Shown here piece by piece: positions 37,365 to 60,530 of a DNA stretch of 64,000 nt. The notes beneath the pieces were generated by a model. The model was not told the DNA's origin. It searched no databases and saw only the letters and a list, made by a program, of their open reading frames with translations. The translations under genes were made by a program, and so were the position numbers. Position 1 is the stretch's first letter. Each line of letters starts with the position of its first letter. Origin of the DNA: Patescibacteria group bacterium (lineage in GTDB: Bacteria > Patescibacteriota > UBA1384 > CAJBMM01); the NCBI GenBank assembly GCA_041660565.1, contig JBAZWC010000001.1:238481-302480 (forward strand), written 5' to 3'.

Positions 37365-39437
37365 TTACTTAACTTTACCGGAAATAATGTCTAGTTGGAT
37401 GTTAGCTGGGACTGATTCGTAATGGTCAAATTCCATCGAATATGACGCTCGGCCCTGAGACATCGATCGCAATGTGGTGGCATATCCAAACATGCTTGAA
37501 AGCGGCACGGTTGCATCGACAATTTTGGCGGTGCCACGCTCGGTCATCTGCTGAATTTGACCACGCTTGGCGTTCAAATCACCAATCACATCGCCCATAA
37601 AATCTTCCGGAGTAGTCACTTCAACCTTCATAATTGGCTCCAAAATGGTTGGATTTGCCTTTTTAACCGCATCTTGCAATGCCATTGAACCGGCAATTTT
37701 GAATGCCATTTCAGACGAGTCAACTTCGTGAAAAGTACCGTCAAATAAGGTAACGTGTAGGCCTTCAACCGGATATCCGGCAATAACGCCTTTTTCCATC
37801 GCTTCTTTAACGCCTTGCTCAACCGCCGGAATGTATTCTTTAGGAATAGCACCACCGACAATTTTATTCTCAAACTCCAGACCTTGGCCGGATTCGTTAG
37901 GTTTGACGCGCAAATAAACATGCCCGTACTGGCCACGACCACCCGACTGACGGATAAACTTGCCTTCTTGCTCTACTTCGCTGCGTACGGTCTCTTTGTA
38001 GGCCACCTGAGGCTTACCAGAGGTTACCTCTACCTTAAACTCGCGGCGCATTCTATCTACAATAATTTCCAAATGCAGCTCGCCCATTCCGGACAAAATT
38101 GTCTGGCCGGTTTCTTGGTTAGATTTAACTCTTAATGTTGGATCTTCCTCGACTAATCGAGCAATAGCCACACCCATTTTTTCTTGGTCGGCTTTGGTTT
38201 TTGGCTCAACTGCCATATCGATAACCGGCTCTGGGAAGGTTATGGATTCCAATCTAACTTGATTATCGCTGTCGCACAACGTATCACCGGTTCGAGTGGC
38301 TTTTAAGCCAACCGCAGCGGCAATATCACCGGAATAAACTTCGTTTACATCTTCGCGATGATTGGCGTGCAAACGCACAATGCGACCAATACGTTCTTTT
38401 TCACCGTTAGTAGTGTTAACCACGTATGATCCTGATTTCAAGATGCCACGATATACGCGGAAGAAAATTAATTTACCCACAAACGGATCTGCAGCAACTT
38501 TAAAAGCCAAGCCCACAAATGAACCGTTATCATCGGTTTTAACTTCAATGTCGGCATCGGTTTTAAGATCTACACCCTTAACCTGCGCAACATCATGAGG
38601 AGATGGCAAATAGGCCACCACAGCGTCTAGCAACGTTTCTACGATCACACCGCGGCCATCTCCACCCATCACCGGGTAGAAATCACCTTTAATGACGCTT
38701 TTGCGAATGGCTGTTTTTAATTCGTCGTCGGTTAGCTCTTCGCCATTTAAATATTTTTCCATCGCCGTGTCATCGGCTTCAACCGCTTTTTCTAGTAGTT
38801 CGGTACGATATTTCTCTACTTCATCTACCATACTAGACGGAATTTCGGTCTCAACCAACTCGTGATCGGTATAATCTTTATAGGTATAAGCTTTTCGCGC
38901 CACTACATCTACCACACCGTTAATGCTTTGTTCAAAGCCAATTGGCAGCTGAATTGGAAAAGTGTTTTTAGATAAGCGTTCGCGAATAGAGGCCAGTGAT
39001 TTATAGAAATCGCCGCCGGTTTGGTTAATTTTATTGATAAAGCAAATACGCGGAACGGTATATTTGTCTGCTTGACGCCAAACAGTCTCGGATTGTGGCT
39101 CTACCCCCATTTTGCCATCAAAAATGACCACTGCGCCATCTAGTACGCGCAATGATCGTTCTACCTCAACGGTAAAGTCAACGTGTCCCGGGGTGTCAAT
39201 AATGTTAATACGATGATTTTTCCAATAACAGGTGGTGGCAGCAGAGGTGATGGTAATACCGCGCTCGCGCTCTTGCTCCATCCAGTCCATGGTTGCTTCG
39301 CCTTCATGCACTTCGCCGATTTTATGCACTTTACCGGTACGATACAAAATACCTTCGGTAACAGTAGTTTTACCGGCATCAATATGGGCGATGGTGCCAA
39401 TGTTACGAGTTAATTCAATTGAAACTTCGCGTGCCAT
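37365..39437 (-). CDS. fusA: elongation factor G
   Basis: [17 protein letters not shown]; 690 aa. Confidence 0.95.
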
Positions 39438-39520
39438 TATCTCTCCTCAGGTGTTATTTACACAAAATCCCCTCTTAAGAGTAAATAATAACACACCCGT
39501 GTTCAAAAGTCAAAATGTTA

Positions 39521-39549
39521 TTGACAATTTTATAAATAGTTCTATACTT
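39521..39549 (+). promoter_or_regulatory. consensus sigma70-type promoter TTGACA-N17-TATACT
   Basis: ttgacaattttataaatagttctatact, followed by GGAGGTG RBS and the start at 39585. Confidence 0.6.
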
Positions 39550-39584
39550 ATCATCAGTACGCTACCTGACCGGAGGTGGATGAG

Positions 39585-40007
39585 ATGAGCATTATGGAGG
39601 GCAAGATCGTATGGCACCTCGATTCGAATCTGCAGACTCGTCGGATCATCTGCAGTAACCTAGAGCGATTGGGATGCATCGTAGTCGGGTTTAATAACAC
39701 CGACGAGATAATCGATCGCCTTGGCGCAATTGAAGCCAATCAGTTGCCGTCAGCGGTTATCACCGAGGTTGCCGGTACCACCGGCAAAGCCGATTTCGCA
39801 ATTCTCTCGATGTTGCGTCGAAACCAGCTTACTCAGAATGTCCCAATCCTGGTGCTGACCGAATGCACTAATGACCAAGACGTGTCCGACGGCTGGCAAC
39901 TTGGCGCTGACTGTATCTTGTCGAAGCCGTTCAACCCGATGGAGGTGTCGGCTGTCCTCAGACGGTTCTTCAAATCGCTCGAGGAGTACCCGCCCGAGCC
40001 TGTATGA
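39585..40007 (+). CDS. stand-alone receiver (REC/CheY-like) domain protein with Glu at the phospho-Asp position; GC-rich
   Basis: KIVWHLDSN (beta1 acidic pair), SAVITEVAG (beta3, D to E), PILVLTE (conserved T), GADCILSKPF (conserved K); ~57% GC vs ~40% host. Confidence 0.55.
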   Translation: MSIMEGKIVWHLDSNLQTRRIICSNLERLGCIVVGFNNTDEIIDRLGAIEANQLPSAVITEVAGTTGKADFAILSMLRRNQLTQNVPILVLTECTNDQDVSDGWQLGADCILSKPFNPMEVSAVLRRFFKSLEEYPPEPV

Positions 40008-40017
40008 CCAGCCCCAG

Positions 40018-40050
40018 CTCCGCAGACGCGCGCCGTTTGCGGAGATGTTT
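40018..40050 (+). terminator. rho-independent terminator (ctccgca...tgcggag + T tract)
   Basis: 7-bp GC stem followed by atgtttt; overlaps the -35 of the next promoter. Confidence 0.6.
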
Positions 40051-40054
40051 TATA

Positions 40055-40082
40055 TTGACAAATTACATAATAATCCTATACT
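40055..40082 (+). promoter_or_regulatory. consensus promoter TTGACA-N16-TATACT
   Basis: ttgacaaattacataataatcctatact; RBS aggggaggtaagg before ATG 40128. Confidence 0.6.
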
Positions 40083-40127
40083 GGTGTCATCTGGCTGTAG
40101 CGCACCACACAGGGGAGGTAAGGCAAA

Positions 40128-40538
40128 ATGGCCGTGAACCTTAAGGGCAAGCAAGTGCTGTATGTCGTCAACGGCGTTGATATACAATACGCCTGGATTC
40201 TCAACTACGTGACGTCTGAACTCGGCGCGGCCACGTTGCTGTCGTTTCAGGACGCGGTGAGTATGATCAATCACTCACCTGACCCCGAAAGAGTGGGGGT
40301 GGTATTCTACCTAACCGGACCGTCAGACTTCCCCGGCATGAACACGGTGCGTTACCTGGCGCAACTGGGCTACCGGGTCATTGTTATCGGGCAGTCTTCC
40401 GAGGTGATATATGGCGTGTGGGCTGGCCTTGCTGGCGCTGTCGCTTTCATCCCAACTGGACACTTGGACTGCGCCTGCGTTAAAGAAGCGATTAGGGTCG
40501 CTTTCATGACCGAGATCGCAACGCCTGTTCCGGCCTGA
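40128..40538 (+). CDS. degenerate receiver-like (CheY-fold) protein; GC-rich
   Basis: alternating beta/alpha pattern QVLYVVNG / VGVVFYLTGPSDFPGMN / RVIVIGQSSE / AVAFIPTGHL matching REC topology but with D/T/K positions substituted. Confidence 0.4.
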   Translation: MAVNLKGKQVLYVVNGVDIQYAWILNYVTSELGAATLLSFQDAVSMINHSPDPERVGVVFYLTGPSDFPGMNTVRYLAQLGYRVIVIGQSSEVIYGVWAGLAGAVAFIPTGHLDCACVKEAIRVAFMTEIATPVPA

Positions 40539-40563
40539 CCCACGCACACCCATCTCCACCTCG

Positions 40564-40600
40564 TCTCCGCACGCGCCAGTCGCCTGCGGAGATGTTTTTT
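40564..40600 (+). terminator. rho-independent terminator (tctccgca...tgcggaga + TTTTTT)
   Basis: 8-bp stem, 13-nt loop, T6 tract. Confidence 0.65.
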
Positions 40601-40601
40601 A

Positions 40602-40629
40602 TTGACAAAACGCAACATTACTCTATAAT
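40602..40629 (+). promoter_or_regulatory. perfect-consensus promoter TTGACA-N16-TATAAT
   Basis: ttgacaaaacgcaacattactctataat. Confidence 0.65.
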
Positions 40630-40694
40630 TAATGCCATCAACCGTACCTGCACAACCTAGGTCTTCCGTTCTGGACCAGAGAGGATATCGCGCG

Positions 40695-41240
40695 ATGGGG
40701 TCATTTCGGATCAGTCAAGCAGACGCCGAGGAAATGCATCACCTTCTCGAATCGCTAATCCGGCTACATGATAACAGACCGCTTCCGAATGGCGTGTCAC
40801 TGGACACTATTGTCAGACGAGCCAGATCGGTTCACGGTCGCATCGGCTGCCTGCGCAACAGGAAAAAGGCGCTGCTAAACGCGCCGATATTCTCGAACTT
40901 GATGGTGGTCGAACACCCGTTTAGCGGCCGAACGGTGGTATTGGCGGAGCGCTCCAATATGGTCTCACGCGAAACGTCGCTTGAGTCCACGTTGGACCTT
41001 GCCAATGAGATCTGCATGATCTACCGAATCCCCCTCGATCAGCTAGACTGGTACGAGCGGGATCAGCCGGTAACATCGGGTCAGACCCCCAAGCAAGCGG
41101 ACGTCCGCTGCTTCTCGGTCATCTTCCAGATTGTGGACGGGCGGCTGGATAGTTTCTCCCGTGTTGCGCTATCCAGCGACGAGCTCGCAACTCGCACCCT
41201 GGGCCTGGAGTTTGCCAAGCGGCTCTCGCCAGTGTTCTAG
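40695..41240 (+). CDS. GC-rich hypothetical protein (181 aa from internal Met; the ORF-track start at 40632 lies inside the promoter and was rejected)
   Basis: gagagga RBS then ATG at 40695; no recognisable domain. Confidence 0.4.
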   Translation: MGSFRISQADAEEMHHLLESLIRLHDNRPLPNGVSLDTIVRRARSVHGRIGCLRNRKKALLNAPIFSNLMVVEHPFSGRTVVLAERSNMVSRETSLESTLDLANEICMIYRIPLDQLDWYERDQPVTSGQTPKQADVRCFSVIFQIVDGRLDSFSRVALSSDELATRTLGLEFAKRLSPVF

Positions 41241-41287
41241 GACACATCAACCATATCGTGCCGAGACGATCACCACCAACCAACAAC

Positions 41288-41330
41288 CCTCCGCGACGGG
41301 CAACCGTTTCGGAGGGTATTTTATTTATAT
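41288..41330 (+). terminator. rho-independent terminator (ccctccg...cggaggg + tattttattt)
   Basis: third member of the same terminator family at the end of the GC-rich island. Confidence 0.6.
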
Positions 41331-41357
41331 AGATTCCGGATCTAGTCCGGAATGACA
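41324..41357. repeat. palindromic element type A (ATAGATTCCGGAtctagTCCGGAATGACAC)
   Basis: marks the right border of the GC-rich island. Confidence 0.7.
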
Positions 41358-41424
41358 CAAAAAAAGTCCGTGTTACGCTCGAACAAAAAATCCGTCACCC
41401 GTCATCTGTTTTCCATTATCCGCT

Positions 41425-42069
41425 TCACTGTTTTTCGGGGCAGATTGGGGTTAGCCCGGCGGCAACTCGAGTAGCTTGCGTGGCCGCATCATACTGACAG
41501 CCAATTGTATAATAATGTGTATTCACGTAGCTATCAGCACTTAAAACATACGTTTCGCGTGCGAGATCATGGCAGCCACCATTGGAATATGTTGTAGCGC
41601 AGCTAACCGAACTATTATTTATCTCTAGTACTGACAAAATTCCATAGGCCATACTGTTGTTGGCGTTCGTTTTTTGAGTATAAACCCAATAATCATAGAC
41701 ATCGTTGGGATTTTTAGTGGCATCATTGGCTTTTGATACCAACAAACCGCCATTACATTTTCCGATTGGGTCAGATGGCAGAGTTGACGCAAATGCGGCT
41801 AGTGCCGGTAGCAATGTGGAAGTCCAGTTACTTGGTGCGCCACCCTGTGATGCACAGGAATAAACATTAGACGCGCCAGCCCCCGGATAAATCGAGTTAG
41901 CCTGTTTATAATTAACCATATTTAGACGAAGCGTCTGCATATCGTTTTTACGAGTAGCATCACGCGCTCTTAAGCGTGCAGATTTAGCGTAATTTAAAGT
42001 CATCGCGGCCAAAATGCCAATAACCGATACGACAATTAATATCTCAATTAGATTGAATGACTTACGCAT
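41425..42069 (-). CDS. type IV pilin-like protein (prepilin N-terminal domain)
   Basis: MRKSFNLIEILIVVSVIGILAAMTL class III signal/N-methylation motif; Cys pairs in the C-terminal globular part. Confidence 0.7.
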   Translation of the reverse strand: MRKSFNLIEILIVVSVIGILAAMTLNYAKSARLRARDATRKNDMQTLRLNMVNYKQANSIYPGAGASNVYSCASQGGAPSNWTSTLLPALAAFASTLPSDPIGKCNGGLLVSKANDATKNPNDVYDYWVYTQKTNANNSMAYGILSVLEINNSSVSCATTYSNGGCHDLARETYVLSADSYVNTHYYTIGCQYDAATQATRVAAGLTPICPEKQ

Positions 42070-42160
42070 ACAATTATTATAATCTGTCTCGGACAGATTA
42101 CAATAAAAATTCGAAATTCAAAGCACCAAGCACTAAATAAATTTGAAAAAAGTTCTTCTT

Positions 42161-42192
42161 GTCATTCCGGGCTTGACCCGGAATCTATATAG
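42161..42192. repeat. palindromic element type A (GTCATTCCGGGCTTGACCCGGAATCTATATAG)
   Basis: identical to the 19237 copy. Confidence 0.75.
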
Positions 42193-42306: not shown

Positions 42307-42789
42307 TTACCCGGTAAACTTGGCAAAGTGAGCAAAGGCCTTGTTGGCGTCTGCCATGCGGTGCATATCGTCTTTTTTCTTCATCGCTGCGCCGGTGTTG
42401 TGATAAGCATCGGTAATTTCTTCGGCCAGAAACTCTGACATTGGTTTGCCTTGTTTGCCGCGAGCAGATGCAATCATCCACTTCATCGCTAAAGTTTGAC
42501 GACGAGCGCGAGGCACTTCAAACGGGATTTGATAGTTTGCGCCACCAATACGTTTACCTTTAACCTCTAACACCGGTGAGGCATTTTTGATAGCGGTATC
42601 AAACACTTCCATTGGGTCTAGGTTGGTTTTTTTGCCAATTTGCTCAAGCGCAGTATAGACAATTTTTTGGGCGACTGATTTTTTGCCATCTAGCAAAATA
42701 TAGTTGATAAACTTACCCAATGCGACGCTTTGATAAACTGGATCAGGTTGGACAATATTAATTTTAGGATGATTTCGGCCTCTTGACAT
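42307..42789 (-). CDS. rpsG: 30S ribosomal protein S7
   Basis: str-operon position; S7 pattern. Confidence 0.9.
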   Translation of the reverse strand: MSRGRNHPKINIVQPDPVYQSVALGKFINYILLDGKKSVAQKIVYTALEQIGKKTNLDPMEVFDTAIKNASPVLEVKGKRIGGANYQIPFEVPRARRQTLAMKWMIASARGKQGKPMSEFLAEEITDAYHNTGAAMKKKDDMHRMADANKAFAHFAKFTG

Positions 42790-50579: not shown

Positions 50580-51035
50580 CACATTTCTCCCTTTGTTATC
50601 GAAACTATATTATTTATATATATTAGATTTGGGTGATAATACGCATCACAGTTTGTCATTTCGACTCCCTCCGGGCGTAGTCTACGGGCAGAGCCTCGAG
50701 CGTTGTCTCGAGGGTGGAGAAATCTTCATAAAGAGTTCTCCTCGGTTCCGTTCTCTGTCCTCTGTCATCTGTTTTCCGAATTTACACAAAACGGCCGGTT
50801 CTGCTTGGATAGCAGAAACAGCCTGCTTAATGTCAGGACTTAAGCCGAAATTATTACCATGAGGCTCCGACGTTTGGCTAATCTATATTTAGGCTATCAA
50901 AAGTTTGATAGCTTGTCAACCCCCTGGCAACGAGGGGTTGCCAAAATTTTAAATTTTAAATTTTAAATTTGAAATTGGTCGAATTTTTGTTTTTAGATAG
51001 TCTTTCACCCGGATTGTCATTCCGGGCTCGACCCG

Positions 51036-51120
51036 GAATCTATATAAATAGAACATCCATACGCAGTTCAAATTATAAATTTCAAAATGTAAATTCACCC
51101 ACCCGCCTTGCTCTTTACTC
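51036..51120. repeat. composite element: type A palindrome + AACATCCATACGCAGT + AT-rich AAATTTCAAAATGTAAATT
   Basis: near-identical composite at 52266-52348. Confidence 0.7.
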
Positions 51121-51190
51121 TTATATATGTTATTATATTGGCATACTGAGCGCCATTGCTCAGAATTCGGTTCACAATAAGGAGTCCGTG

Positions 51191-51481
51191 ATGCGACACG
51201 CTCAAGGCGGGAAAATCCGAGGCAAGCACACGAGCATCATCGACGAGGCCGAGTCGCTGATTAAGGCGGTGGACGGCCTGGCGTGCGTTACTGGAGTGAG
51301 TCTTGGATTCATCCAGCACACCAAAGGGCGCCCAGTCCCGAAGAACCTCAAGTTCCTTGACGTGGATGCCGGGCTGCAACTCACCGTTCGCGCCCCAAAG
51401 ACGGTTCAGACGCTGATTGTCTATACCAGCGACCGAACCGGCACGGCAAAAGCGCTTTGCGAGGCCTTCTACAAGAAGTGA
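51191..51481 (+). CDS. GC-rich small hypothetical protein (96 aa)
   Basis: taaggag RBS + ATG 51191; ~58% GC; ends in a terminator shared with the next cassette. Confidence 0.4.
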   Translation: MRHAQGGKIRGKHTSIIDEAESLIKAVDGLACVTGVSLGFIQHTKGRPVPKNLKFLDVDAGLQLTVRAPKTVQTLIVYTSDRTGTAKALCEAFYKK

Positions 51482-51505
51482 CCTCGCGCCCATCACCATC
51501 CACCA

Positions 51506-51548
51506 GGCCGGCAGTCCACCACGGACTCCCGGCCTAATTCTTTGCTTA
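51506..51548 (+). terminator. rho-independent terminator ggccggcagtccaccacggactcccggcc + taattctttgc
   Basis: nested GC hairpin + T-rich tail; duplicated verbatim at 52046-52090. Confidence 0.6.
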
Positions 51549-51556
51549 TTTATCTT

Positions 51557-51598
51557 GTCATTCCGGTCCGCCGGCTGGCGGATAATCCGGAATCTACA
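51557..51598. repeat. palindromic element type A variant with extended loop (GTCATTCCGGtccgccggctggcggataaTCCGGAATCTACATA)
   Basis: same stem as type A; loop forms its own hairpin. Confidence 0.65.
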
Positions 51599-51696
51599 TA
51601 AAAAGAATCATTCCAAATGTTTTAAAATTAAAAATTAAAAATTTAAAATTTTGCTTATGTCTATCCCCCATCACAATATCGAGTCCAACATTCGTC

Positions 51697-51725
51697 TTGA
51701 CATGATTATATTATTGTAGTATATC
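51697..51725 (+). promoter_or_regulatory. promoter TTGACA-N17-TATATC
   Basis: cttgacatgattatattattgtagtatatc upstream of RBS aaaggg and ATG 51759. Confidence 0.5.
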
Positions 51726-51758
51726 TAAATTATCCTGCAAGTCGAAAGGGTTAGTCCG

Positions 51759-51947
51759 ATGCCAGAGAGAGACACGCAGTCCCGCAGTGGCAGTATCGAA
51801 GTGACAGTGGGCTCCGGCCGCGATGGCGGCACCGGCCAGTCGACGACCGACATGCTGATCATCGATCACGACAGCCGCGACGGTAGCCACGACCACGTGG
51901 TCATCAGCGAGTCCGGCGAGACGCTGCACGACACCACCCGCAAGTAG
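51759..51947 (+). CDS. GC-rich small acidic low-complexity protein (62 aa), hypothetical
   Basis: ~63% GC ORF with its own promoter, RBS and the duplicated terminator. Confidence 0.3.
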   Translation: MPERDTQSRSGSIEVTVGSGRDGGTGQSTTDMLIIDHDSRDGSHDHVVISESGETLHDTTRK

Positions 51948-52045
51948 GAAGTGCACGGAGGGCTAACGCTCACACCGACACTTCCTGGGCAGATACCTCT
52001 ATCGGAGGCGTCTGCCTGTAATCATAGAACAGGGCCTCACCAAAG

Positions 52046-52090
52046 GCCGGCAGTCCACCACGGACTCCCGGCCTAATTCTTTGCCAATTT
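52046..52090 (+). terminator. second copy of the ggccggcagtccaccacggactcccggcc terminator
   Basis: identical 29-nt hairpin + taattctttgcc. Confidence 0.6.
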
Positions 52091-52102
52091 TTGTTTTCCC
52101 CT

Positions 52103-52348
52103 GTCATTCCGGATTTAATCCGGAATCTATTCCTATGGTGTCATTCCCGCGAAGGTGGGAATCCAGCCTATAAAAAACCGTCTTTCTTCTGGATCCCCGA
52201 ATAAAATGTCGGGGATGACAATTTAGTCAAAACCGTGCTCAAAAGAGAACCGTCCCCTATCCTTTGTCATTCCGGGCTCGACCTGGAATCTATATAGATA
52301 AAACTTCCATACACAGTAAAAATTAAAAAATTTAAAATTTAAAATTCC
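52103..52348. repeat. cluster of palindromic elements: type A (52103-52132), type B (52139-52175), type D ATCCCCGaataaaatgtCGGGGATGACA (52192-52224), composite type A + AT-rich (52266-52348)
   Basis: each has a perfect 7-8 bp inverted repeat; type B is near-identical to 19276-19312. Confidence 0.7.
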
Positions 52349-53094
52349 ACGGTCTTAACCGCCTCGGTGTAACCACAATAATCACAACTTGGATTGGCTT
52401 CTGGAATACTATCACTATTCAAACACTCATGTGCTTTAAGCAACGTGCCATCTATCCAACTGTCACTGCCCTTATACGCAATTAGCGTAATATCAAACTC
52501 TAACTTGGCGTCAAACGCGCTTTTGTCTGTGCGCCCGTTGCAATACACAAAATAGCCGGTATCAGAAACCTTGTAACCATTTTGCCTCAAGAGCCACTGA
52601 TACACCTCCATCTGCCGCTTATACCCGTCTTGCCACTCTTTATTAAGCTCGGTTATTTCCTCGGCTTTAGAGGTAGATTTATAATCCACCACAATATATT
52701 CACCTTGTGAGTTCTGCCACAAATCGTCAATTGCACCAAAGACTAAAAAGTTGGTTTTGGGATGCAAAAACTGCACGCCGGTAAAGTTATGCCGCCATTT
52801 TTCTAAATCTTCATGCGCCACCGGCACCGCATCTACTCCGTATTTCTGAATCAGCGGATGTTTGCTACCTTTAGCACGGTAGATATCGAATTCGAGTTTT
52901 AACAGGTGGTCAACGGCGGAGTTTAGGGCAAATGGGAATCCGGGTGGTCTGCCAACCCCTAGCCGGCGGTCTAGGTAGAAACACCGCGGGCATTCGGTAA
53001 ATAGGTCAATTTTGCTGCGGGATAACTTAAACGGCTCTGACGAATTAGGATCGTACAAGCCTTTTACTCGTTGTGGGGTGTAATATTCGTACAT
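52339..53094 (-). CDS. PD-(D/E)xK nuclease, Cas4/RecB-like with FeS-type cysteines
   Basis: GAIDDLW ... IVVDYKST (D...D-x-K); Cys at C35-x2-C38 and C225...C238-x2-C241; 4 nt after the upstream gene. Confidence 0.6.
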   Translation of the reverse strand: MYEYYTPQRVKGLYDPNSSEPFKLSRSKIDLFTECPRCFYLDRRLGVGRPPGFPFALNSAVDHLLKLEFDIYRAKGSKHPLIQKYGVDAVPVAHEDLEKWRHNFTGVQFLHPKTNFLVFGAIDDLWQNSQGEYIVVDYKSTSKAEEITELNKEWQDGYKRQMEVYQWLLRQNGYKVSDTGYFVYCNGRTDKSAFDAKLEFDITLIAYKGSDSWIDGTLLKAHECLNSDSIPEANPSCDYCGYTEAVKTVEF

Positions 53095-53097
53095 GAT

Positions 53098-55914
53098 TTA
53101 TAATTCTTTCTTAAAATCTAATTTCCTGGCTCTCTGCCGCAACGCCTCTTTACCACCCTCGAGCACATCAATTATCCTGTCTCTGATTTCTATATTTTCA
53201 ATAGAACCGGTTAGGTAATCAAAGTTATATTTTCCCGCGCTATGTCTTGAATTACTTGATACCAACACCTCTTCTGAATCAGCACAAACAACCAAACTTC
53301 CGTTATGAGAAACAATAATAATTTGCCTATCCTCCTTTTCGGACTTTATAAAGTTGACAAGGTCAGTCGCTACGCCACCAACGTCTAAGTCATCTTCAGG
53401 CTGATCTATTAATATAGGATACTTTTCGTCATCAAATCTAAATACCAACTCGAGCAAGGCAATTGCTTTTTGCCCTCCTGTCATATCCTTAAAAGCCGTG
53501 TCATTCTCCTTGGTTTTTACCGAGTTAAGATAATCAATCTCGTATCGGTTCTTTATTAATTGGGAAATTACCTGTGAAACATCAGATGCGTCAACCTTGA
53601 TTTTAATCTTGTTATTCACGAGATTAACTATTACTTTCCTAAGAGTATCATTACTTAACTGAGCAGTACTCTCACCAAAGAATTGAGTAATATCTGGTTC
53701 CTGCTTTAAGCTTGCGTCTGTGTCACGGGTGTTAATGTTTCGCTCCACGAACCTCTTTAGATCTTCGCTATTATATTCTGTGACAATATCAATATTCAGG
53801 AATGTAAATAGGTCATCAAACCGCACGGTTTCAAATACTGTTTTACGCTGATAATCATACTCTTTGTATATGTTGATTAAGGAATCGATTGCCTCTTTTT
53901 GCTGTACGTCTGATTGTTGAAGAATCTTTGTAAGTTCATCAATTTTTTTAATCGTATCCTGAAGTCCTGCTAGCTCCTTAGTCAATGTCTCGAGGGCCGT
54001 ATTTAGTTTGATTTTCTCATTGAGTGTACTAACGATCGCGCTATTCTCCTTGATAACTGTTTCGCAACTGTTAATTTCAGTTTTAATACTATCAATCTCT
54101 GCTTTTATTAGAACACTCAAACTTTCTTTTCCTTTTCTGACCAATTCATCGCGAATTAATTTCTGTCTCTCGAGTGAGAGTCTGCTAAATTCCTGGTTTG
54201 ATACATAGACTCCTGCGCCCGTCTTATCAAGAGTCTCAAGGATTGTTTTGTCCTGAGACAGCAGCAGAAGGAATTTCTGATTATCAGCAATGAGGCTCTT
54301 AGCATCCGAGTATTCTTTAATTTCCTCATCAGATATAGATGTGCTACCTGAGACCTTATATTTTTTAATTTCAACATTTTTATTTGCAATTTCTTTTTCA
54401 ATCTCAATTTTCGATCCTTGTTTTCTTATAAGAAGTGCGGTTTCGTTATTAGTAGATTTGGCTGATAGCAAGCTTTCAATTAATGCCTCTGCTTTAACTT
54501 TGTTATTTGAAGTTAACTCTTCGTAAACTTGAATCGCATTCGCAAACAATGAATGCTTTTTAAGTAATCGGGTTAAGAACTGATCCCTTTCTGCCGCTTT
54601 ATCCCCATCGTCATACGCTAAGGAACTCAAATAATTTTGGGGTATATAAAAAACGCTTTTTGGGCTGTCATTGCTACCATGATCTTCCTGCCCATCAACC
54701 CATATAACTTTCACCGAATCTAATGGATACAGATTGGCGGGCTTATCTTTTTCAGTAAATTGTGCTGGATCGACATTATGCGCGATATTTCTTAGCAACG
54801 TAGACTTCCCGCTACCGCGAACACCGATGATTGAGTTAAGATCCTGGTTAAACACAACAGTTTTGTCCTGTTGATCAGCGTTCTTGTATGTAGCTCTATC
54901 AATTATTATCCGCCCTGACTTACTATCGCCAGGATTTCTTTCCTGGATTCGTACTCTATCCTTTGGTTCCCATAAAACCTGTTTTAAACCTTCAAAACTT
55001 GTATCCGCTTTTATCCAGCAAAATAGATTATTATCTGGATTAAATAATTTTGCTTCCGTATGGGCATCGCATCCGTGAACGCAAGGTTTTAATGATCCGC
55101 ATTTACTAATAACTGTTTCCCTGTCATCGGTTTTTTCTCCCAGAAAGTATCGTCTATCTTCAGGATTGCCGGAAAAGATTGCATTAGAAATAGTATAAAT
55201 AGATTTTCTTACAGCATCGAGTTGGCTTGCAGCATCATTTTCAAATAGATCGTAATGTTTTTGTAAACCCGAAGCACCATCTACACAGGAATTACTAACT
55301 ACAATAATTACCTTCTCGCGGAAGTTGGCGTTAGCTTCATAAAGGGCATGTAATTGGCTGTGATCGACGACAAACGAATCTATCCCTTTTTTGTAAGCGG
55401 CTACATCACTTAAGTTTGAATCGATAAATTTTCCCAACCCTATAAACCCAGCTTGATTCATTTTGAACTTTCGGCCAGGCTCAGCAGCATACTCTATAGA
55501 ATTAAATAGATCGTTGTCTATATTTGCAACAAAATCAGGATTAAGTATACAGTGTATATTCACGAGCCGCCCATGATCTGTAGAGGGCATCATTCGCAAC
55601 TCGATGTTTGGTATAATAAATATTTCTTTGATCTTCACTTTTTCCTCTGGTAAGAATACAGGCTCGCCAGATTCGTTTGTTTCATGGAAACTGTCAATAT
55701 TATCGACGAACTCTTTAACCTTTTTGTAGTTATCAATATTAAAATAGTCAGTAATTCCAATTACGACGATTTCTTTTGATAACGCTTCCCTTAATAGAGT
55801 CGTGCAAAACTGGCCGAAGGATTGACTTGTAAACCTATCATTTTTAGCAGTATCTTTTGTATGAACATGTAGATCCCACCTTGCCCATATTGAACCGCGA
55901 GGATTGTTACGCAT
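53098..55914 (-). CDS. PHP-domain phosphoesterase fused to SMC/Rad50/SbcC-like ABC ATPase with long coiled coil (Ppl-like)
   Basis: N-term WDLHVHT (PHP motif); GVRGSGKSTLL Walker A; ~450-aa coiled-coil; MTGGQKA signature; PILIDQPEDDLD Walker B/D-loop; IIIVSHN H-loop. Confidence 0.7.
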   Translation of the reverse strand: MRNNPRGSIWARWDLHVHTKDTAKNDRFTSQSFGQFCTTLLREALSKEIVVIGITDYFNIDNYKKVKEFVDNIDSFHETNESGEPVFLPEEKVKIKEIFIIPNIELRMMPSTDHGRLVNIHCILNPDFVANIDNDLFNSIEYAAEPGRKFKMNQAGFIGLGKFIDSNLSDVAAYKKGIDSFVVDHSQLHALYEANANFREKVIIVVSNSCVDGASGLQKHYDLFENDAASQLDAVRKSIYTISNAIFSGNPEDRRYFLGEKTDDRETVISKCGSLKPCVHGCDAHTEAKLFNPDNNLFCWIKADTSFEGLKQVLWEPKDRVRIQERNPGDSKSGRIIIDRATYKNADQQDKTVVFNQDLNSIIGVRGSGKSTLLRNIAHNVDPAQFTEKDKPANLYPLDSVKVIWVDGQEDHGSNDSPKSVFYIPQNYLSSLAYDDGDKAAERDQFLTRLLKKHSLFANAIQVYEELTSNNKVKAEALIESLLSAKSTNNETALLIRKQGSKIEIEKEIANKNVEIKKYKVSGSTSISDEEIKEYSDAKSLIADNQKFLLLLSQDKTILETLDKTGAGVYVSNQEFSRLSLERQKLIRDELVRKGKESLSVLIKAEIDSIKTEINSCETVIKENSAIVSTLNEKIKLNTALETLTKELAGLQDTIKKIDELTKILQQSDVQQKEAIDSLINIYKEYDYQRKTVFETVRFDDLFTFLNIDIVTEYNSEDLKRFVERNINTRDTDASLKQEPDITQFFGESTAQLSNDTLRKVIVNLVNNKIKIKVDASDVSQVISQLIKNRYEIDYLNSVKTKENDTAFKDMTGGQKAIALLELVFRFDDEKYPILIDQPEDDLDVGGVATDLVNFIKSEKEDRQIIIVSHNGSLVVCADSEEVLVSSNSRHSAGKYNFDYLTGSIENIEIRDRIIDVLEGGKEALRQRARKLDFKKEL

Positions 55915-58750
55915 TAGTAATCCTTAATAGTCCGGGCACTGTTGAGTGAACCGTTATCCTATCAGTCGGGACAATAATGTATCTCCATGGTTTTATAATG
56001 CCATTAGATCCAATATTTCTCGAAACCAGATCACAATACTTCTCAGCTGTCTTCTTTTTCTCTTGAACATTATGGGCCAGTATTTCACTTTCTGGTTTCA
56101 CTTCAACCATTACAATTTCATGCTCCAATTCGACTACAAAATCTGGTTCATATCTATGTTGCGATTCACCGTTTTCGTCACGCCAGTATAAGCCTTCAAA
56201 CTGATTGGGTGCCGGTCGAAGCCAATCTATGACAGATCCATCCCTTTCTAGAAGATACGCTAAGCGAACTTCGTCCGAGGAATCAAATCGATATTTAGAA
56301 TGACAGGCTTTTTGAAACTTGCCATAAAGCAGTTTGGCGTTAAATGTATCCACCTGCGAATCAAGAAAAACAACCTTTTCATCAAAAGATTCGGAAATAT
56401 TGTACTGTTCCAGATATGGTTTTGGTTCTCGTATATCCGATTCAAGATATCCTTCAGACTTTAGCTCCTTATGTTCTAAAATCTGCTTATAGATATCCTC
56501 GGCGATTGAACGTGCGTTACTTTCAATTATTAAGGCCAAATTATCCTCGTCGATTGCCTTTTTACGGTAATATACCACTGCTTGTTCCGCCAACTTGAGA
56601 AGTAATGGTTTTTGAGCTGGGTCATCATAATCAACCAACGGAAAGTCCAATAGTGCAGCGATTATCGTGCTTTGTGGGGATTGCCTATAATGCGCTCCAA
56701 AACTACTGATTCTCGTCACCTCGCTCACCCTGCGACCAGGGACTTCTTCTCCGAATAGGTTTTCCTCATGCTCATTCTGTAGTTGCTCTTCAAGAATAGC
56801 CCGTTCGTTGGTATAGGTACGCAACATTCCAAAACTTGTATCTAAGTCAAAATGTTCAATGGATAGCTCTCCAAAATGTGGAGTGAGAATTAGGCGCGGA
56901 ATGGGTATATTTCTTTTTTCCATTGTTGCGGCAGATTCTTTTGCAATCTTAGAAAGTTCATCTTTTACCTCATCGCTGAAAGAACCAAACAGAGTATCGG
57001 GGCCAAATGAGATCTCTGTGGGCGCACCAGATTCCTGACCGTAATAATTAGAAAATGTGAGGCTCTTGATCGTCTCTCTAGTCAACCCGCCAACAATTTC
57101 ATCTTTCTTAGCCTCGGCGAATCTTTCTCTGACAGATTCATCCATACTTTCACTTTGAGGGAAGCTAGCAACAATCGCTTCAACCTTCTCGTCTACTGCC
57201 CGCATCACCAAATTATTTTGGGTTATCTCCCTCATTAGAACATCAAGAATCACCGGTTGGACTTCGGCTAATACTTTAACCTCTTTTGCCTCGCGTTCAG
57301 ATATCTGCTCTACCTGTCCTTGAATAAGTGGTGAATCTTTAGCAAGCGCAACTACTTTAGAATACTGTTCATGGGCAACAAGCACTAATCTATCCACCAA
57401 AGGAACGCCGGTTCGTTCTCCGTAAGGCAATCGCAAACCGCGCCCAATGGTTTGCTCAGTTAGAATTGCAGCGGCTGATTCACGTAGGGGCGCGATGGTA
57501 TAGACGTTTGTAACATCCCAGCCCTCTTTAAGCATGTTGACATGAATCACAATCTCAATCGGATTGTCGGGATGCTCAAGAGAGATTAGTTTCTCAATAT
57601 TTTCATCAGCCTCATCCCCGCGAAGTCTTGTATGTATTTCAATTACTTTTCCGGCAAACTCTCCGGCACGGAAGTTCTCACTTTCAATCAGGTTTCTTAG
57701 CTCTCCTGCATGCGTTGTGTCTTTAGCCACAACCAGCATAACTGGCTTTACAACCGATCTATTGTTTTCTAGCGCATATTCTTTTAAGGCATTCTTAGCT
57801 CGTTCGTGAAAAAAGGCGGCTAGTTGTAATTTACGGGCATCAGTATCAATCGAATCCGGATCAAATTGGCTGAAATCCACATCAGCTTCAGTACCGATCC
57901 ACGGATCCTTAACTAGTTTACCTCGAATGGCATCACCAAGATTATATGAATACAAAACATTTTTCATTCTGGTCTGAGTTGCATTTCTGCCTGTGCCTTG
58001 AGTGCCCAAATAAGGCGTTGCAGTCATCTCCAAGCCAAATAGAGGATCGAGTATATCAAGTGCCCCAAGCGCGGCATCAGCGTGGTAATGATGGGCTTCA
58101 TCAAGCATGACCACTAAATCGTCGTGTTCCTTAAGGTAATCAAAATACGACTCGCCAGCTGTTTCCCAAGCTTTCGTTATACCTCGTTCATTGGTCATGT
58201 CTCTCTGGGCAAACTGCTGAACATTAAAGATATTTATCTCAATCTGGTTGCCAAAAAGAGTGTACCCGCGCTGTTTTGTATAGTTATCAACTGTAATTAC
58301 CTTGGCTGTGTTGATATTTATCTCTTGGATACCTTTGAAAACATACTTTGGGTTATTTGCTTTACTAAAATCATCAAATAGCTTTCGGTAGATAGTTAGG
58401 TTGGGGGCAACTATCAAAAAGTGCTGGATGTTATAAACCAAGTATAAATACGCTACAAAAGCACCCATTAATCTGGTTTTACCCACTCCAGTGGCCAGAG
58501 CGAAAGTGTAAGCGGGGAATTTTCGCTCAAATTCCTCAAACCCGCGCGCTTCAGGGACAGTGCTAAAATATTCTCTGCTTGTTTCCAATATTTCAGCAGT
58601 ATCGCCTCGATTCGTTTTCTTCATGCGGGCTAACACCCTTTGCCCAGCTTCTGATTGTAAGTAATTAGCAAATATCTCTAAACTTTTGAGCTGCGGATCG
58701 CGCAGGCTCATTGCATTGTTGATATATACAAGTGCTTCTTGTGGAGTCAT
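55907..58750 (-). CDS. Type III restriction Res-like protein: DEAH helicase + C-terminal PD-(D/E)xK endonuclease
   Basis: FALATGVGKTRLMGAF (motif I), VVMLDEAHHY (DEAH), TIGRGLRLPYG (motif VI), C-term YEPDFVVELEHEIVMVEVKPE. Confidence 0.75.
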   Translation of the reverse strand: MTPQEALVYINNAMSLRDPQLKSLEIFANYLQSEAGQRVLARMKKTNRGDTAEILETSREYFSTVPEARGFEEFERKFPAYTFALATGVGKTRLMGAFVAYLYLVYNIQHFLIVAPNLTIYRKLFDDFSKANNPKYVFKGIQEININTAKVITVDNYTKQRGYTLFGNQIEINIFNVQQFAQRDMTNERGITKAWETAGESYFDYLKEHDDLVVMLDEAHHYHADAALGALDILDPLFGLEMTATPYLGTQGTGRNATQTRMKNVLYSYNLGDAIRGKLVKDPWIGTEADVDFSQFDPDSIDTDARKLQLAAFFHERAKNALKEYALENNRSVVKPVMLVVAKDTTHAGELRNLIESENFRAGEFAGKVIEIHTRLRGDEADENIEKLISLEHPDNPIEIVIHVNMLKEGWDVTNVYTIAPLRESAAAILTEQTIGRGLRLPYGERTGVPLVDRLVLVAHEQYSKVVALAKDSPLIQGQVEQISEREAKEVKVLAEVQPVILDVLMREITQNNLVMRAVDEKVEAIVASFPQSESMDESVRERFAEAKKDEIVGGLTRETIKSLTFSNYYGQESGAPTEISFGPDTLFGSFSDEVKDELSKIAKESAATMEKRNIPIPRLILTPHFGELSIEHFDLDTSFGMLRTYTNERAILEEQLQNEHEENLFGEEVPGRRVSEVTRISSFGAHYRQSPQSTIIAALLDFPLVDYDDPAQKPLLLKLAEQAVVYYRKKAIDEDNLALIIESNARSIAEDIYKQILEHKELKSEGYLESDIREPKPYLEQYNISESFDEKVVFLDSQVDTFNAKLLYGKFQKACHSKYRFDSSDEVRLAYLLERDGSVIDWLRPAPNQFEGLYWRDENGESQHRYEPDFVVELEHEIVMVEVKPESEILAHNVQEKKKTAEKYCDLVSRNIGSNGIIKPWRYIIVPTDRITVHSTVPGLLRITNA

Positions 58751-58753
58751 GGC

Positions 58754-60526
58754 CTAGTCGCTTTCCTCATCATTTTCTAATTCTTCCATAGCTGTTTCCT
58801 TAATTGGCAGTAAGTATTCTTTCTTGCCAAAATGACAGGCTTTCAGCACTGATTGTGGAATCTTCTTGATCGTAATTCGACTATCAATTTTTTCCGCGCC
58901 GGGCTCAAACTTCTTGGGACAAATAATCAATGATTCGCCATCGGAAAGATGGCCCACAATCTGTTGAACCATTCCGCATGTTAAGAGTTGGGTTGTGACA
59001 TAAAGGTAGTTCTTACCTTGGCCCATACCGTGTTTCCAATATTCAGTTTGGCTTGGCTGATAAGTGAAATTCATCAGCTTGCACATGGCTTTAATAAGCT
59101 TTGTATCGTTGTAATAATCGTCAATTATTGGGTTACCAAACTCATCTTTGATGATAAAACTTGGGGCTAACTCATAGAATTTGTATGCACCTCCACCTTG
59201 CCATTCTAAGGTTTTACTGATACCACCTTGATCTAGACCGCTAATGACCTTATCTAATCTTACCTTGCAGTGTGTGAATGCATGATCGCCCATTTCAATT
59301 CCAAGATATCTACGTCTCATTTTATGTGCGACAGCGCATGTTGTACCAGAGCCCAGGAAAGAATCTAGTACGATATCATCCTCATTTGTAGACATTCGTA
59401 TTATTCTCTGTAGCAGTGATTCCGGCTTTTTACCGTTTGGGAAAAGTACCCCGCCTTCTTTTGTAACATTAATCCAGCTAAAACCATCCCAGTAGGTACC
59501 AATTTTTTCCTTTTTGTATATCTTTCCTTTTAAAAGTGTTGCGGTATCTTTGAGCCAAATCACAAGAACTTTTTGTTTTCCCATAAAAATAATATCTATT
59601 TTATTATCTTTATTTCTTCCGGACTTGGGGCTATAAGAAGCAATGAACATATTATTTTCACTATCCGTAGCATCCCAAACTCTGGTTCTGATCGATGTTT
59701 GAGCATTTGTTGTGGTAATTATTTTGTCAAAATATTTTATATACACTTCATTCTCAGAAATGCCTTCAAGCTGAGCTATTTGTTTTACGCTTTTTATGTC
59801 GTAACTTTTAACTTCGGATATTACTATATCATCGCCGCTTCCGTCCTTAATGATTTTATACGGAACGACATTATCAATCTTATAAAGTACGGAGGTGTAT
59901 TTAAAACTTTTTTCGTCATCTTTCATTCGAGCAATATAACTCATCAGCTCTGTTTCCTTATAAACAGGTTCAAACGGCAAAAAAGAATTTGTTTCTTTGC
60001 AATATACTAATATATATTCAATGTTCTTCTTTAGCCTTATATCTTCACCGCCCCCACTGGCACCGGCACTAACTTTTGAATTCACCGAGATAGTATTGAT
60101 AAAGTTATTTCTTCCAAAAACTTCATCCATTAATACCCTAAGATACGGTTGCTCAACATCATCAATTTGAATAAAAATAATTCCATCTTCTTTAAGAAGC
60201 ATCCTCAATAATTCTAGCCTTGGTTTCATCAAGGATAGCCAAGTACTATGCTCTACGCTGTCATCGTAGTACTCAAATGCGTTACCGGTGTTATATGGCG
60301 GATCAATATATATACATTTTATTTTACCCTCATATTCAGGGAGTAGAGCTTTTAGTGCGAGAAGATTATCCCCGTGAATAATCATATTCTCGGTATTTGG
60401 ATCATTGGCACAATTTGAAAGCTCAGGGTTTTCTTCTAAGATTCTTGGCTCGATGTTAGCAATATCGTACTCGGGATTATTTTTCCCAATCCAGGTTAGT
60501 TCTAGTTTTTGTTTGTTGTTTGTCAT
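58754..60526 (-). CDS. beta-class N6-adenine/N4-cytosine DNA methyltransferase (Type III Mod-like)
   Basis: CIYIDPPYNTG (motif IV) N-terminal to DSFLGSGTTCAVA (motif I); IIHGDNLLALKAL. Confidence 0.8.
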   Translation of the reverse strand: MTNNKQKLELTWIGKNNPEYDIANIEPRILEENPELSNCANDPNTENMIIHGDNLLALKALLPEYEGKIKCIYIDPPYNTGNAFEYYDDSVEHSTWLSLMKPRLELLRMLLKEDGIIFIQIDDVEQPYLRVLMDEVFGRNNFINTISVNSKVSAGASGGGEDIRLKKNIEYILVYCKETNSFLPFEPVYKETELMSYIARMKDDEKSFKYTSVLYKIDNVVPYKIIKDGSGDDIVISEVKSYDIKSVKQIAQLEGISENEVYIKYFDKIITTTNAQTSIRTRVWDATDSENNMFIASYSPKSGRNKDNKIDIIFMGKQKVLVIWLKDTATLLKGKIYKKEKIGTYWDGFSWINVTKEGGVLFPNGKKPESLLQRIIRMSTNEDDIVLDSFLGSGTTCAVAHKMRRRYLGIEMGDHAFTHCKVRLDKVISGLDQGGISKTLEWQGGGAYKFYELAPSFIIKDEFGNPIIDDYYNDTKLIKAMCKLMNFTYQPSQTEYWKHGMGQGKNYLYVTTQLLTCGMVQQIVGHLSDGESLIICPKKFEPGAEKIDSRITIKKIPQSVLKACHFGKKEYLLPIKETAMEELENDEESD

Positions 60527-60530
60527 AGCT

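Follow-up and report, generated by a model that had tools for sequence, protein, structure and literature searches.

A compositionally foreign three-gene block encoding a predicted stand-alone pseudo-receiver and a putative second one between rpsG and fusA in a Patescibacteria genome

Genomic setting and composition of the block

The window analysed here is a stretch of 64 kb (64,000 nucleotides; all coordinates below refer to it) of contig JBAZWC010000001.1, the 516-kb source contig of a Patescibacteria group bacterium metagenome-assembled genome (GCA_041660565.1). It contains a block of three small plus-strand genes, encoding proteins referred to as P1 (140 aa), P2 (136 aa) and P3 (181 aa), the last from an open reading frame (ORF) downstream of P2 (Table 1). 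The NCBI entries for these proteins, MFA6082060.1, MFA6082061.1, and MFA6082062.1, respectively, are all annotated as hypothetical. In the original prediction, which was made from the sequence alone, P1 and P2 were described as two stand-alone CheY-fold proteins with substituted phospho-acceptor sites, and both ORFs were indeed found at the predicted positions with a coding signature in their GC content by codon position. The neighbouring genes (rpoC, rpsL, rpsG, a pilin-like gene, fusA, tuf, and rpsJ) all lie on the minus strand, and the block sits within the str operon, between rpsG and fusA and antisense to the operon.

The composition of the block differs from that of its surroundings, with sharp steps in GC content at ~39,580 and ~41,300 between 0.36–0.42 outside and 0.53–0.60 inside. 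At the third codon position (GC3), the genes for P1, P2, and P3 have a GC content of 0.66, 0.67, and 0.70, compared to 0.33–0.46 for host genes. The values for the first, second, and third codon positions (0.55/0.39/0.66 for P1 and 0.59/0.42/0.67 for P2) follow the order GC3 > GC1 > GC2, and this pattern, also found for P3, matches real genes of a genome with ~55–57% GC. An abrupt jump in GC content would also be expected if a fragment of a higher-GC organism had been mis-joined into the contig, and this organism is known from one sample only: exact look-ups gave no record for RpsG or the pilin-like protein and retrieved RpsL from the same sample alone. However, positions 39264–41353 of the window are found with 100% identity in an independent Logan assembly of SRR18595301, and since this Logan contig spans from the first 174 nt of fusA on the left to 22 nt of a host repeat hairpin on the right, it argues against a chimera. 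The block also lies inside the 516-kb contig, and its first promoter, which faces away from an adjacent promoter-like site for fusA, is located in AT-rich DNA of host type. We thus regard an assembly artefact as extremely improbable.

The spacer between rpsG and fusA has a length of 2,869 bp in this genome and is filled by the three foreign genes and the host-like pilin gene, compared to a median of 30 bp (range 11–331 bp) in 22 other genomes that were retrieved by way of RpoC. These genomes show that a tight rpsG–fusA junction is general, while the insertion itself stays undated. They are distant relatives (RpoC C-terminal identity ≤50%), and because the closest GTDB-representative RpoC C-termini are ≤50% identical, the polarity of the insertion rests on these 22 distant genomes. 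A block of ~1.9 kb (roughly 39,520–41,320) has probably been acquired horizontally between rpsG and fusA. Flanking direct repeats, att-like repeats, and phage genes were absent from the 64-kb window, and integrase domains were absent from the window ORFs scanned.

To the right of the block, a REP-like (repetitive extragenic palindromic) hairpin, GATTCCGG-N7-CCGGAATGACA, marks the return to host-type sequence. It is present in eight copies in the 64 kb, with none expected (19236, 23511, 25913, 41332, 42160, 51015, 52102, and 52265), and is a genome-wide repeat of the host that probably accounts for the break of the Logan contig at 41353. The adjoining pilin gene is bracketed (41326–42191) by a 39-nt inverted repeat (85%) formed by two of the REP copies. 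As with the foreign block, the pilin gene is missing from the rpsG–fusA spacer of the 22 other genomes, and no relative of it was found in metagenome contigs. This REP-bracketed gene may be a mobile cassette.

Predicted transcription units

The genes for P1, P2, and P3 appear to form three separate monocistronic units, each with a predicted near-consensus sigma-70 promoter (11–12 of 12 positions), a Shine-Dalgarno sequence, a small ORF, and an intrinsic terminator with a hairpin of -19 to -24 kcal/mol followed by a U-rich tail. Sites of the type TTGACA-N15-18-TATAMT occur three times in the 64-kb window, all of them on the block (0.12 expected; none of 100 shuffles reached three), and the same window also holds rpoBC as well as the str and ribosomal-protein operons. 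All three promoters contain TATTGACAA, with a CATC motif close to the expected transcription start, and the terminator-plus-promoter module that precedes the P2 gene is repeated before the P3 gene (at 40565; 63 nt, 75% identity). The Shine-Dalgarno sequence of gene 1 (GGAGGTG, 39573–39579) ends 5 nt before the ATG, and an alternative GTG at 39576 falls within it. For P3, ATG 40695 is the most likely start judging from its codon statistics: GC3 is 0.43 before this position and 0.61–0.75 after it, and the ATG further upstream (40632) begins 2 nt past the -10 hexamer in a segment that lacks the coding signature. No non-coding RNA was detected on the block by Rfam at E ≤ 1.

On the left side, the promoter-like sites of fusA and gene 1 are divergent and back to back (39485–39548), with 7 nt between their -35 hexamers. 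As the block separates fusA from rpsL–rpsG, fusA would need a promoter of its own, and the predicted minus-strand site (39513–39485) could drive the fusA–tuf part of the operon, which is now apart from rpsL–rpsG. The starts of the three ORFs (39585, 40128, and 40632/40695) all fall in one frame modulo 3, and the start-to-start spacings of the promoters are 534 and 547 bp; the common frame and similar spacings are probably either a coincidence or a trace of cassette duplication. Integron cassettes were considered for this arrangement and rejected, as the inter-ORF hairpins lack RYYYAAC/GTTRRRY core sites and appear to be ordinary terminators, and no integrase was present in the scanned ORFs.

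Table 1. Genes and regulatory features of the enlarged rpsG–fusA spacer and its flanks (window coordinates)
Feature	Coordinates	Strand	Remarks
fusA (elongation factor G), left host flank	37365..39437	-	ORF and translation
Promoter-like site for fusA, TTGACT-17-TATTAT with extended TG	39485..39513	-	Consensus scan 10/12
Gene 1 promoter, TTGACA-16-TATACT	39521..39548	+	Consensus scan 11/12
Gene 1 (P1), predicted stand-alone pseudo-receiver	39585..40007	+	ATG to stop; D13, S14, E61, T92, K114
Gene 1 intrinsic terminator, 11-bp stem and U-rich tail	40018..40044	+	Free energy (dG) -19.1 kcal/mol, z -3.9
Gene 2 promoter, TTGACA-16-TATACT	40055..40082	+	Within the 63-nt terminator-plus-promoter module
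Gene 2 (P2), ORFan, putative degenerate (beta-alpha)5 receiver-like protein	40128..40538	+
Gene 2 intrinsic terminator	40564..40592	+	Inverted repeat I15; dG -21.0 kcal/mol, z -5.5
Gene 3 promoter, TTGACA-16-TATAAT	40602..40629	+	Consensus scan 12/12
Gene 3 (P3), ORFan	40695..41240	+	No family or fold hint
Gene 3 intrinsic terminator, right end of the high-GC block	41286..41317	+	Inverted repeat I10; dG -24.4 kcal/mol, z -5.7; GC step
Host REP-like hairpin	41332..41357	+
Pilin-like gene, prepilin-type	41425..42069	-	GC3 0.38, host-like; outside the foreign block, same enlarged spacer
Second host REP-like hairpin, flank of the pilin gene	42160..42185	-
rpsG, right host flank	42307..42789	-	ORF and translation

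P1 is a predicted receiver lacking the acceptor aspartate

Profile searches identify P1 as a stand-alone receiver (REC) domain. It matches the Pfam family Response_reg (PF00072, E = 6e-7), 46 NCBIfam response-regulator models, the best being OmpR, PhoB, and VanR, and 87 receiver chains in the PDB (E ≤ 0.01), with a PhoB receiver as the top match (E = 5e-8). Using hhalign, residues 5–131 align to a REC profile of nine reference sequences with a probability of 98.4% and E = 8e-15. Like OmpR/PhoB-type receivers, P1 contains the motifs GAD-x-[ILV]-x-KPF and LRR. It is the sole significant REC among 252 six-frame ORFs of the window, and has no homologue closer than ~36 bits. It also weakly matches phrog_731, a PHROG of no known function (E = 9e-7).

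Three agreeing alignments to hidden Markov models (HMMs) or profiles assign Asp13 and Ser14 to the first and second position of the acidic pair (DD1 and DD2). In the HMMER and hhalign alignments, the phospho-acceptor position (D) is occupied by Glu61 in an ITEV motif. The conserved Thr (T; Thr92, LTE context) and Lys (K; Lys114, SKPF context) are retained, position T+1 is Glu93, and the aromatic-switch position K-3 is Ile111. The beta3-alpha3 loop has a one-residue insertion, and both the Pro at D+4 and the Gly at D+8 are gone. No acceptor Asp is present within eight residues, in the HMM/profile and MAFFT registers alike. Mapping residues onto the Pfam Response_reg alignment, the check proposed with the original prediction, thus yielded an acceptor position without Asp and bore out the expected Glu of the ITEV motif and the retained Thr and Lys, but the claim that P1 keeps the beta1 acidic pair was wrong: only half of the pair is retained, and the metal-binding residue DD2 is a Ser.

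The two best PDB matches of P1 are variants of the PhoB receiver. These entries, 2jb9 and 2jba, are engineered and are reported to be constitutively active (Arribas-Bosacoma et al. 2007). In 2jb9, DD2 is Ala and D is Glu, and P1 is naturally altered at the same two positions (Ser14 and Glu61). The identity to P1 is ~20–25%, however, and P1 differs further in T+1, K-3, and the beta3-alpha3 loop, which is one residue longer.

Based on its residues, P1 lacks the complete acidic pair and the acceptor Asp of a canonical phosphorylatable receiver and is a typical pseudo-receiver as defined by Bourret et al. 2025 (PMC12632262). Pseudo-receivers make up ~6% of bacterial receivers; position D is most often Glu in this class, ~80% of its members have a non-acidic DD2, and a small T+1 residue, an aromatic K-3 residue, Pro at D+4, and Gly at D+8 are depleted (PMC12632262). 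P1 shares the lost acceptor Asp and the non-acidic DD2 with the described pseudo-receivers or aspartate-less receivers (Maule et al. 2015, PMC4395418; Bourret et al. 2025, PMC12632262), as well as a T+1 residue that is not small and the loss of Pro at D+4, Gly at D+8, and the aromatic residue at K-3. It is also an orphan with no kinase nearby, like most characterised examples. P1 differs from the described examples in consisting of a lone domain, with no output domain attached, and in being encoded on a foreign island of a candidate phyla radiation (CPR) genome. Glu-substituted pseudo-receivers are already described and common, so the substitution itself is unremarkable (PMC12632262); less ordinary is the context: all three proteins are ORFans although the composition points to recent transfer, no consensus promoters other than these three occur in the 64 kb, and the rpsG–fusA junction of a CPR genome is split.

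P2 may have a degenerate receiver-like fold

P2 has no match in Pfam and NCBIfam even at E ≤ 10, and none in PHROGs and PADLOC. A self-built REC HMM gave E = 2.1, and paralogy with P1 is undetectable (BLASTP E = 0.56). Neither P1 nor P2 matched the six minor pseudo-receiver families PF06490, PF21155, PF21194, PF21695, PF21714, and PF22368 in the Pfam-A search (E ≤ 10), the presence of these models in the copy used being unchecked. A single-sequence AlphaFold model of P2 has five beta-alpha units in order, with a predicted local distance difference test (pLDDT) score of 54 and a predicted template modelling score of 0.47. The top Foldseek matches of this model in the PDB are mostly receivers (the RssB N-terminal domain, DivK, Spo0F, and KdpE), with template modelling (TM) scores of 0.58–0.66 and a best E of 2.6e-3. 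For calibration, an equally poor model of P1, a true receiver, gave receiver matches with a best E of 3.5e-3 and a TM score of 0.44, and the matches of P2 are thus at least equal to those of a bona fide receiver. When compared to viral models (BFVD), the P2 model retrieves receiver domains of giant-virus histidine kinases among the top ranks.

When P2 was compared to the REC profile with hhalign, 99 columns aligned collinearly with a score of 19.8 (P = 0.0099). This score was not reached in any of 200 residue shuffles of P2 (mean 11.5, maximum 18.5), nor did a shuffle align over more than 90 columns, although shuffling removes secondary-structure periodicity and any alpha/beta protein could beat such a control. 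In the MAFFT alignment, FPGMNT of P2 falls gap-free on MPNMDG of CheY and GAVAFI on GASGYV; the loop FPGMN and the motif GAxAFI are retained in P2. Every alignment places non-functional residues at all five catalytic positions: Val/Asn/Gly at the acidic-pair positions (hhalign and MAFFT), Pro65, or alternatively Leu62/Thr63, at the acceptor position, Gly88 at the Thr position, and Thr110/Gly111 at the Lys position. The expectation that P2 follows the REC topology and has lost the D/T/K residues therefore stood in its second part, all catalytic residues being lost, whereas the fold is plausible from the AlphaFold, Foldseek, and hhalign results despite the E of 2.1 for the REC HMM. On these models, we consider it fairly probable that P2 has a degenerate receiver-like fold. 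As a candidate pseudo-receiver, it would lack the required residues, and its identity as a receiver would be a weak one, at the level of the fold only. Unlike known pseudo-receivers, P2 is too divergent for PF00072 or any other Pfam model.

Alternatively, P2 could be another alpha/beta protein, e.g. degenerate Rossmann/SDR-like (short-chain dehydrogenase/reductase) or SIS-like, which would leave one pseudo-receiver only on the island. The best PDB sequence match of P2 is NDUFA9, an extended SDR (whole-sequence E = 5.5e-4), whose Rossmann N-terminus aligns with a beta-alpha-beta segment (GVV..G...F.G....L...G..VI); SIS-domain and TIR/deoxyribosyltransferase-like chains are among the Foldseek matches, and the match to the REC HMM (E = 2.1) is not significant. 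However, the best single stretch of the NDUFA9 match has an E of 0.07, the mouse orthologue alone scores, with others at 0.3–1.4, and the glycine-rich loop is broken (TGPSDFPG). We judged this lead to be spurious and most likely to reflect generic beta-alpha-beta similarity. Receivers also fill most of the top Foldseek ranks and exceed the SIS domains (TM scores of 0.41–0.46), and the collinear REC alignment takes in the MPGMDG-like loop. Another fold for P2 is therefore doubtful, if still worth serious consideration.

P3, homologue searches, and possible origin of the block

P3 has no match in Pfam, NCBIfam, PHROGs, or PADLOC, none in the PDB at E ≤ 10, and no alignment to the REC profile by hhalign. 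Its length depends on the annotation pipeline, with 181 aa in JGI and Logan and 112 aa, corresponding to the C-terminal part only, in NCBI. Word-indexed HMMER searches of P1, P2, and P3 against 5.8 billion clusters, as well as cluster look-ups, returned self-matches only, and a full phmmer search of P2 against 1.84 billion representatives returned only P2. Thus, all three proteins are ORFans in the sets searched. The DNA of the terminator-promoter module was absent from IMG/VR and the JGI metagenomes searched, no loci related to P1–P3 were found in IMG/VR, and neither blastn of the island nor tblastn of P2 and P3 gave a match among phages (INPHARED) and plasmids (PLSDB). Finally, PADLOC defence models gave 0 families for four proteins at E ≤ 1. 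A role as a defence or toxin-antitoxin system was considered and rejected, as there is no PADLOC match and the units are monocistronic.

Phage morons are autonomous units of promoter, gene, and terminator that have a deviant composition and sit between two neighbouring genes. The island shares this architecture and compositional contrast, in the form of three tandem units with paralogous regulatory modules. It could be moron-like cargo from a phage, plasmid, or other mobile element that has not yet been sampled, encoding for example receiver mimics for host takeover or anti-defence that act outside host signalling. In addition to the autonomous cassettes between two adjacent genes, the ORFan status of P1–P3, which is typical of mobile-element dark matter, the weak match of P1 to phrog_731, and a restriction-modification (RM)/defence-like island nearby in the genome would fit this origin. 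Yet, unlike morons, the island is located in a core chromosomal operon with no prophage, the window lacks phage structural or replication genes and att-like repeats, and no integrase was present among the window ORFs scanned. IMG/VR, INPHARED, and PLSDB gave nothing at the DNA or protein level, nor did PADLOC, and the phrog_731 match is accounted for by the REC domain itself. We consider such cargo unlikely on balance.

The block could also be inert DNA of recent arrival, with P1 being the receiver remnant of an OmpR-family regulator whose DNA-binding domain and catalytic residues were lost, and P2 and P3 decaying or spurious ORFs. P1 is closest to OmpR/PhoB-family receivers yet lacks an output domain, P2 and P3 match nothing, and the P3 start differs between pipelines. 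On the other hand, all three ORFs are intact, with a clean GC3 > GC1 > GC2 order, and the near-perfect promoters, well-spaced Shine-Dalgarno sequences, and strong terminators are features that decay would hit first. Moreover, useless, strong, and unregulated antisense promoters in an essential operon should be counter-selected, which makes inert DNA quite unlikely.

Absence of a cognate kinase and proposed mode of action

As anticipated by the original prediction, no kinase was identified on the island by Pfam and NCBIfam. The ORF at 4033–5406 (+) is the only histidine kinase-like ORF in the 64 kb and is homologous to the dimerisation and histidine phosphotransfer (DHp) and catalytic regions of histidine kinases (PDB 7z8n, E = 7e-9). 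Its FLNRTTMDLQEPL aligns to FLANMSHEIRTPL, with Met at the position of the H-box His, in line with the reported lack of this residue. Pfam detected no HATPase_c in this ORF, and its matches to dCache_1 and HisKA are weak and sub-threshold. Because it has a host-like composition (GC 0.40) and is located 35 kb away, it has no tie to the island. A two-component system was rejected, since the island has no kinase and the only histidine kinase-like ORF of the window lacks both the His and HATPase_c.

The proposed partner-switch module did not hold up either. STAS, HATPase_c anti-sigma kinase, and PP2C domains were not found in P1, P2, or P3 (Pfam and NCBIfam, E ≤ 10), so that the resemblance to the RsbV/RsbW/RsbU and SpoIIAA/AB/E systems is restricted to small cytoplasmic proteins and a proposed mutual binding. 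In contrast, phosphorylation-independent action is a reasonable reading for P1 and P2, which have no acceptor Asp or full catalytic set and no kinase nearby.

With little more than even confidence, we favour a horizontally gained three-unit block with P1 as a pseudo-receiver and P2 as a likely degenerate receiver, acting by binding. The analysis shows the family and residue map of P1, the anatomy of the units, the foreign composition, the insertion site, and the ORFan status; the fold of P2, any co-operation among P1–P3, and their target are inferred. P1 would be unable to bind Mg2+ canonically or to be phosphorylated on Asp, and P1–P3 would work through protein-protein binding with no phosphotransfer. 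Glu substitutions mimic phosphorylation in several classes of response regulators (PMC4847170; PMC12632262), and P1 may be held in an active-like state by the longer acidic side chain of Glu touching the retained Thr and Lys. Since the GAD-x-[ILV]-x-KPF and LRR motifs are kept, homo- or hetero-dimerisation via the alpha4-beta5-alpha5 face would be the likeliest output of P1. If P2 is indeed receiver-like, it would serve purely as a scaffold for binding, and activity may be governed by the firing strength of the three similar promoters rather than by a kinase.

Several points weigh against this interpretation. The Response_reg score of P1 is 30.0 bits, 0.2 bits short of the gathering cut-off (30.2), and an ungapped MAFFT alignment shifts P1 by one residue and puts Val62 opposite Asp57 of CheY. 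The fold of P2 comes from a low-confidence model with Foldseek E values of at least 2.6e-3, and its hhalign probability is 4%, in addition to the permissive shuffle control. Adjacency and similar promoters are the only functional links among P1, P2, and P3. Moreover, for some pseudo-receivers, a phosphomimetic role of Glu has been refuted (PMC12632262). Expression of the units is a prediction from their sequence, and no homologues of P1–P3 were found in the sets searched.

A more far-reaching version, in which P1–P3 would be a self-contained, kinase-free module of two pseudo-receivers and a novel partner or effector, imported horizontally into an ultra-small CPR bacterium, deliberately insulated within its str operon, and modulating a host machine such as translation factors or the type IV pilus by direct binding, is in our view very unlikely. 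If true, it would represent a portable, phosphorylation-independent, receiver-only cassette of a kind so far undescribed. The atypical stand-alone or N-terminal receivers of pilus-assembly proteins such as TadZ/CpaE (4lda, 4myr, and 4dad), which are CheY-like and have no phospho-site, are among the Foldseek matches of the P1 and P2 models. These matches rank low (E 0.02–0.1), however, no ATPase or Tad genes are present, and the adjoining pilin gene is host-like, with a host REP element lying between it and the island. Thus, the association of TadZ/CpaE likeness with a pilin gene is probably coincidental.

The on/off switching of bacterial pseudo-receivers, which account for several percent of receivers, is largely unexplained (PMC12632262), and two minimal stand-alone pseudo-receivers, each with a strong promoter, would offer a small system in which to study phosphorylation-independent receiver function. 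The locus also indicates that, in a reduced CPR genome, the normally inviolate rpsG–fusA junction can be broken by foreign genes that run antisense and have strong promoters. The practical value is limited, as the host is uncultured, there are no homologues for covariation or conservation analyses, and Asp-to-Glu is already the commonest substitution.

Other features of the window

Upstream of rpoB, a stretch of 1.7 kb (50600–52300) has no recognisable genes, a GC content of up to 0.51, and three REP copies. Its GC-rich ORFs (51191–51481 on the plus strand and 51095–51499 on the minus strand) have no Pfam matches, and the stretch may be another patch of foreign DNA. Past this spacer, the RM/defence-like gene block (52339–63470, minus strand) encodes a PD-(D/E)XK nuclease, a 938-aa SMC/AAA-like ATPase, an N6/N4 DNA methylase, a 979-aa SNF2 helicase, and a ResIII helicase of 947 aa that carries a TnsA-like endonuclease domain. 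At the other end of the window, two minus-strand genes encode large predicted surface proteins, one of 675 aa with two Ig-like domains (5998–8025) and one of 1,354 aa with DUF2341, fn3, and PKD domains (8203–12267).

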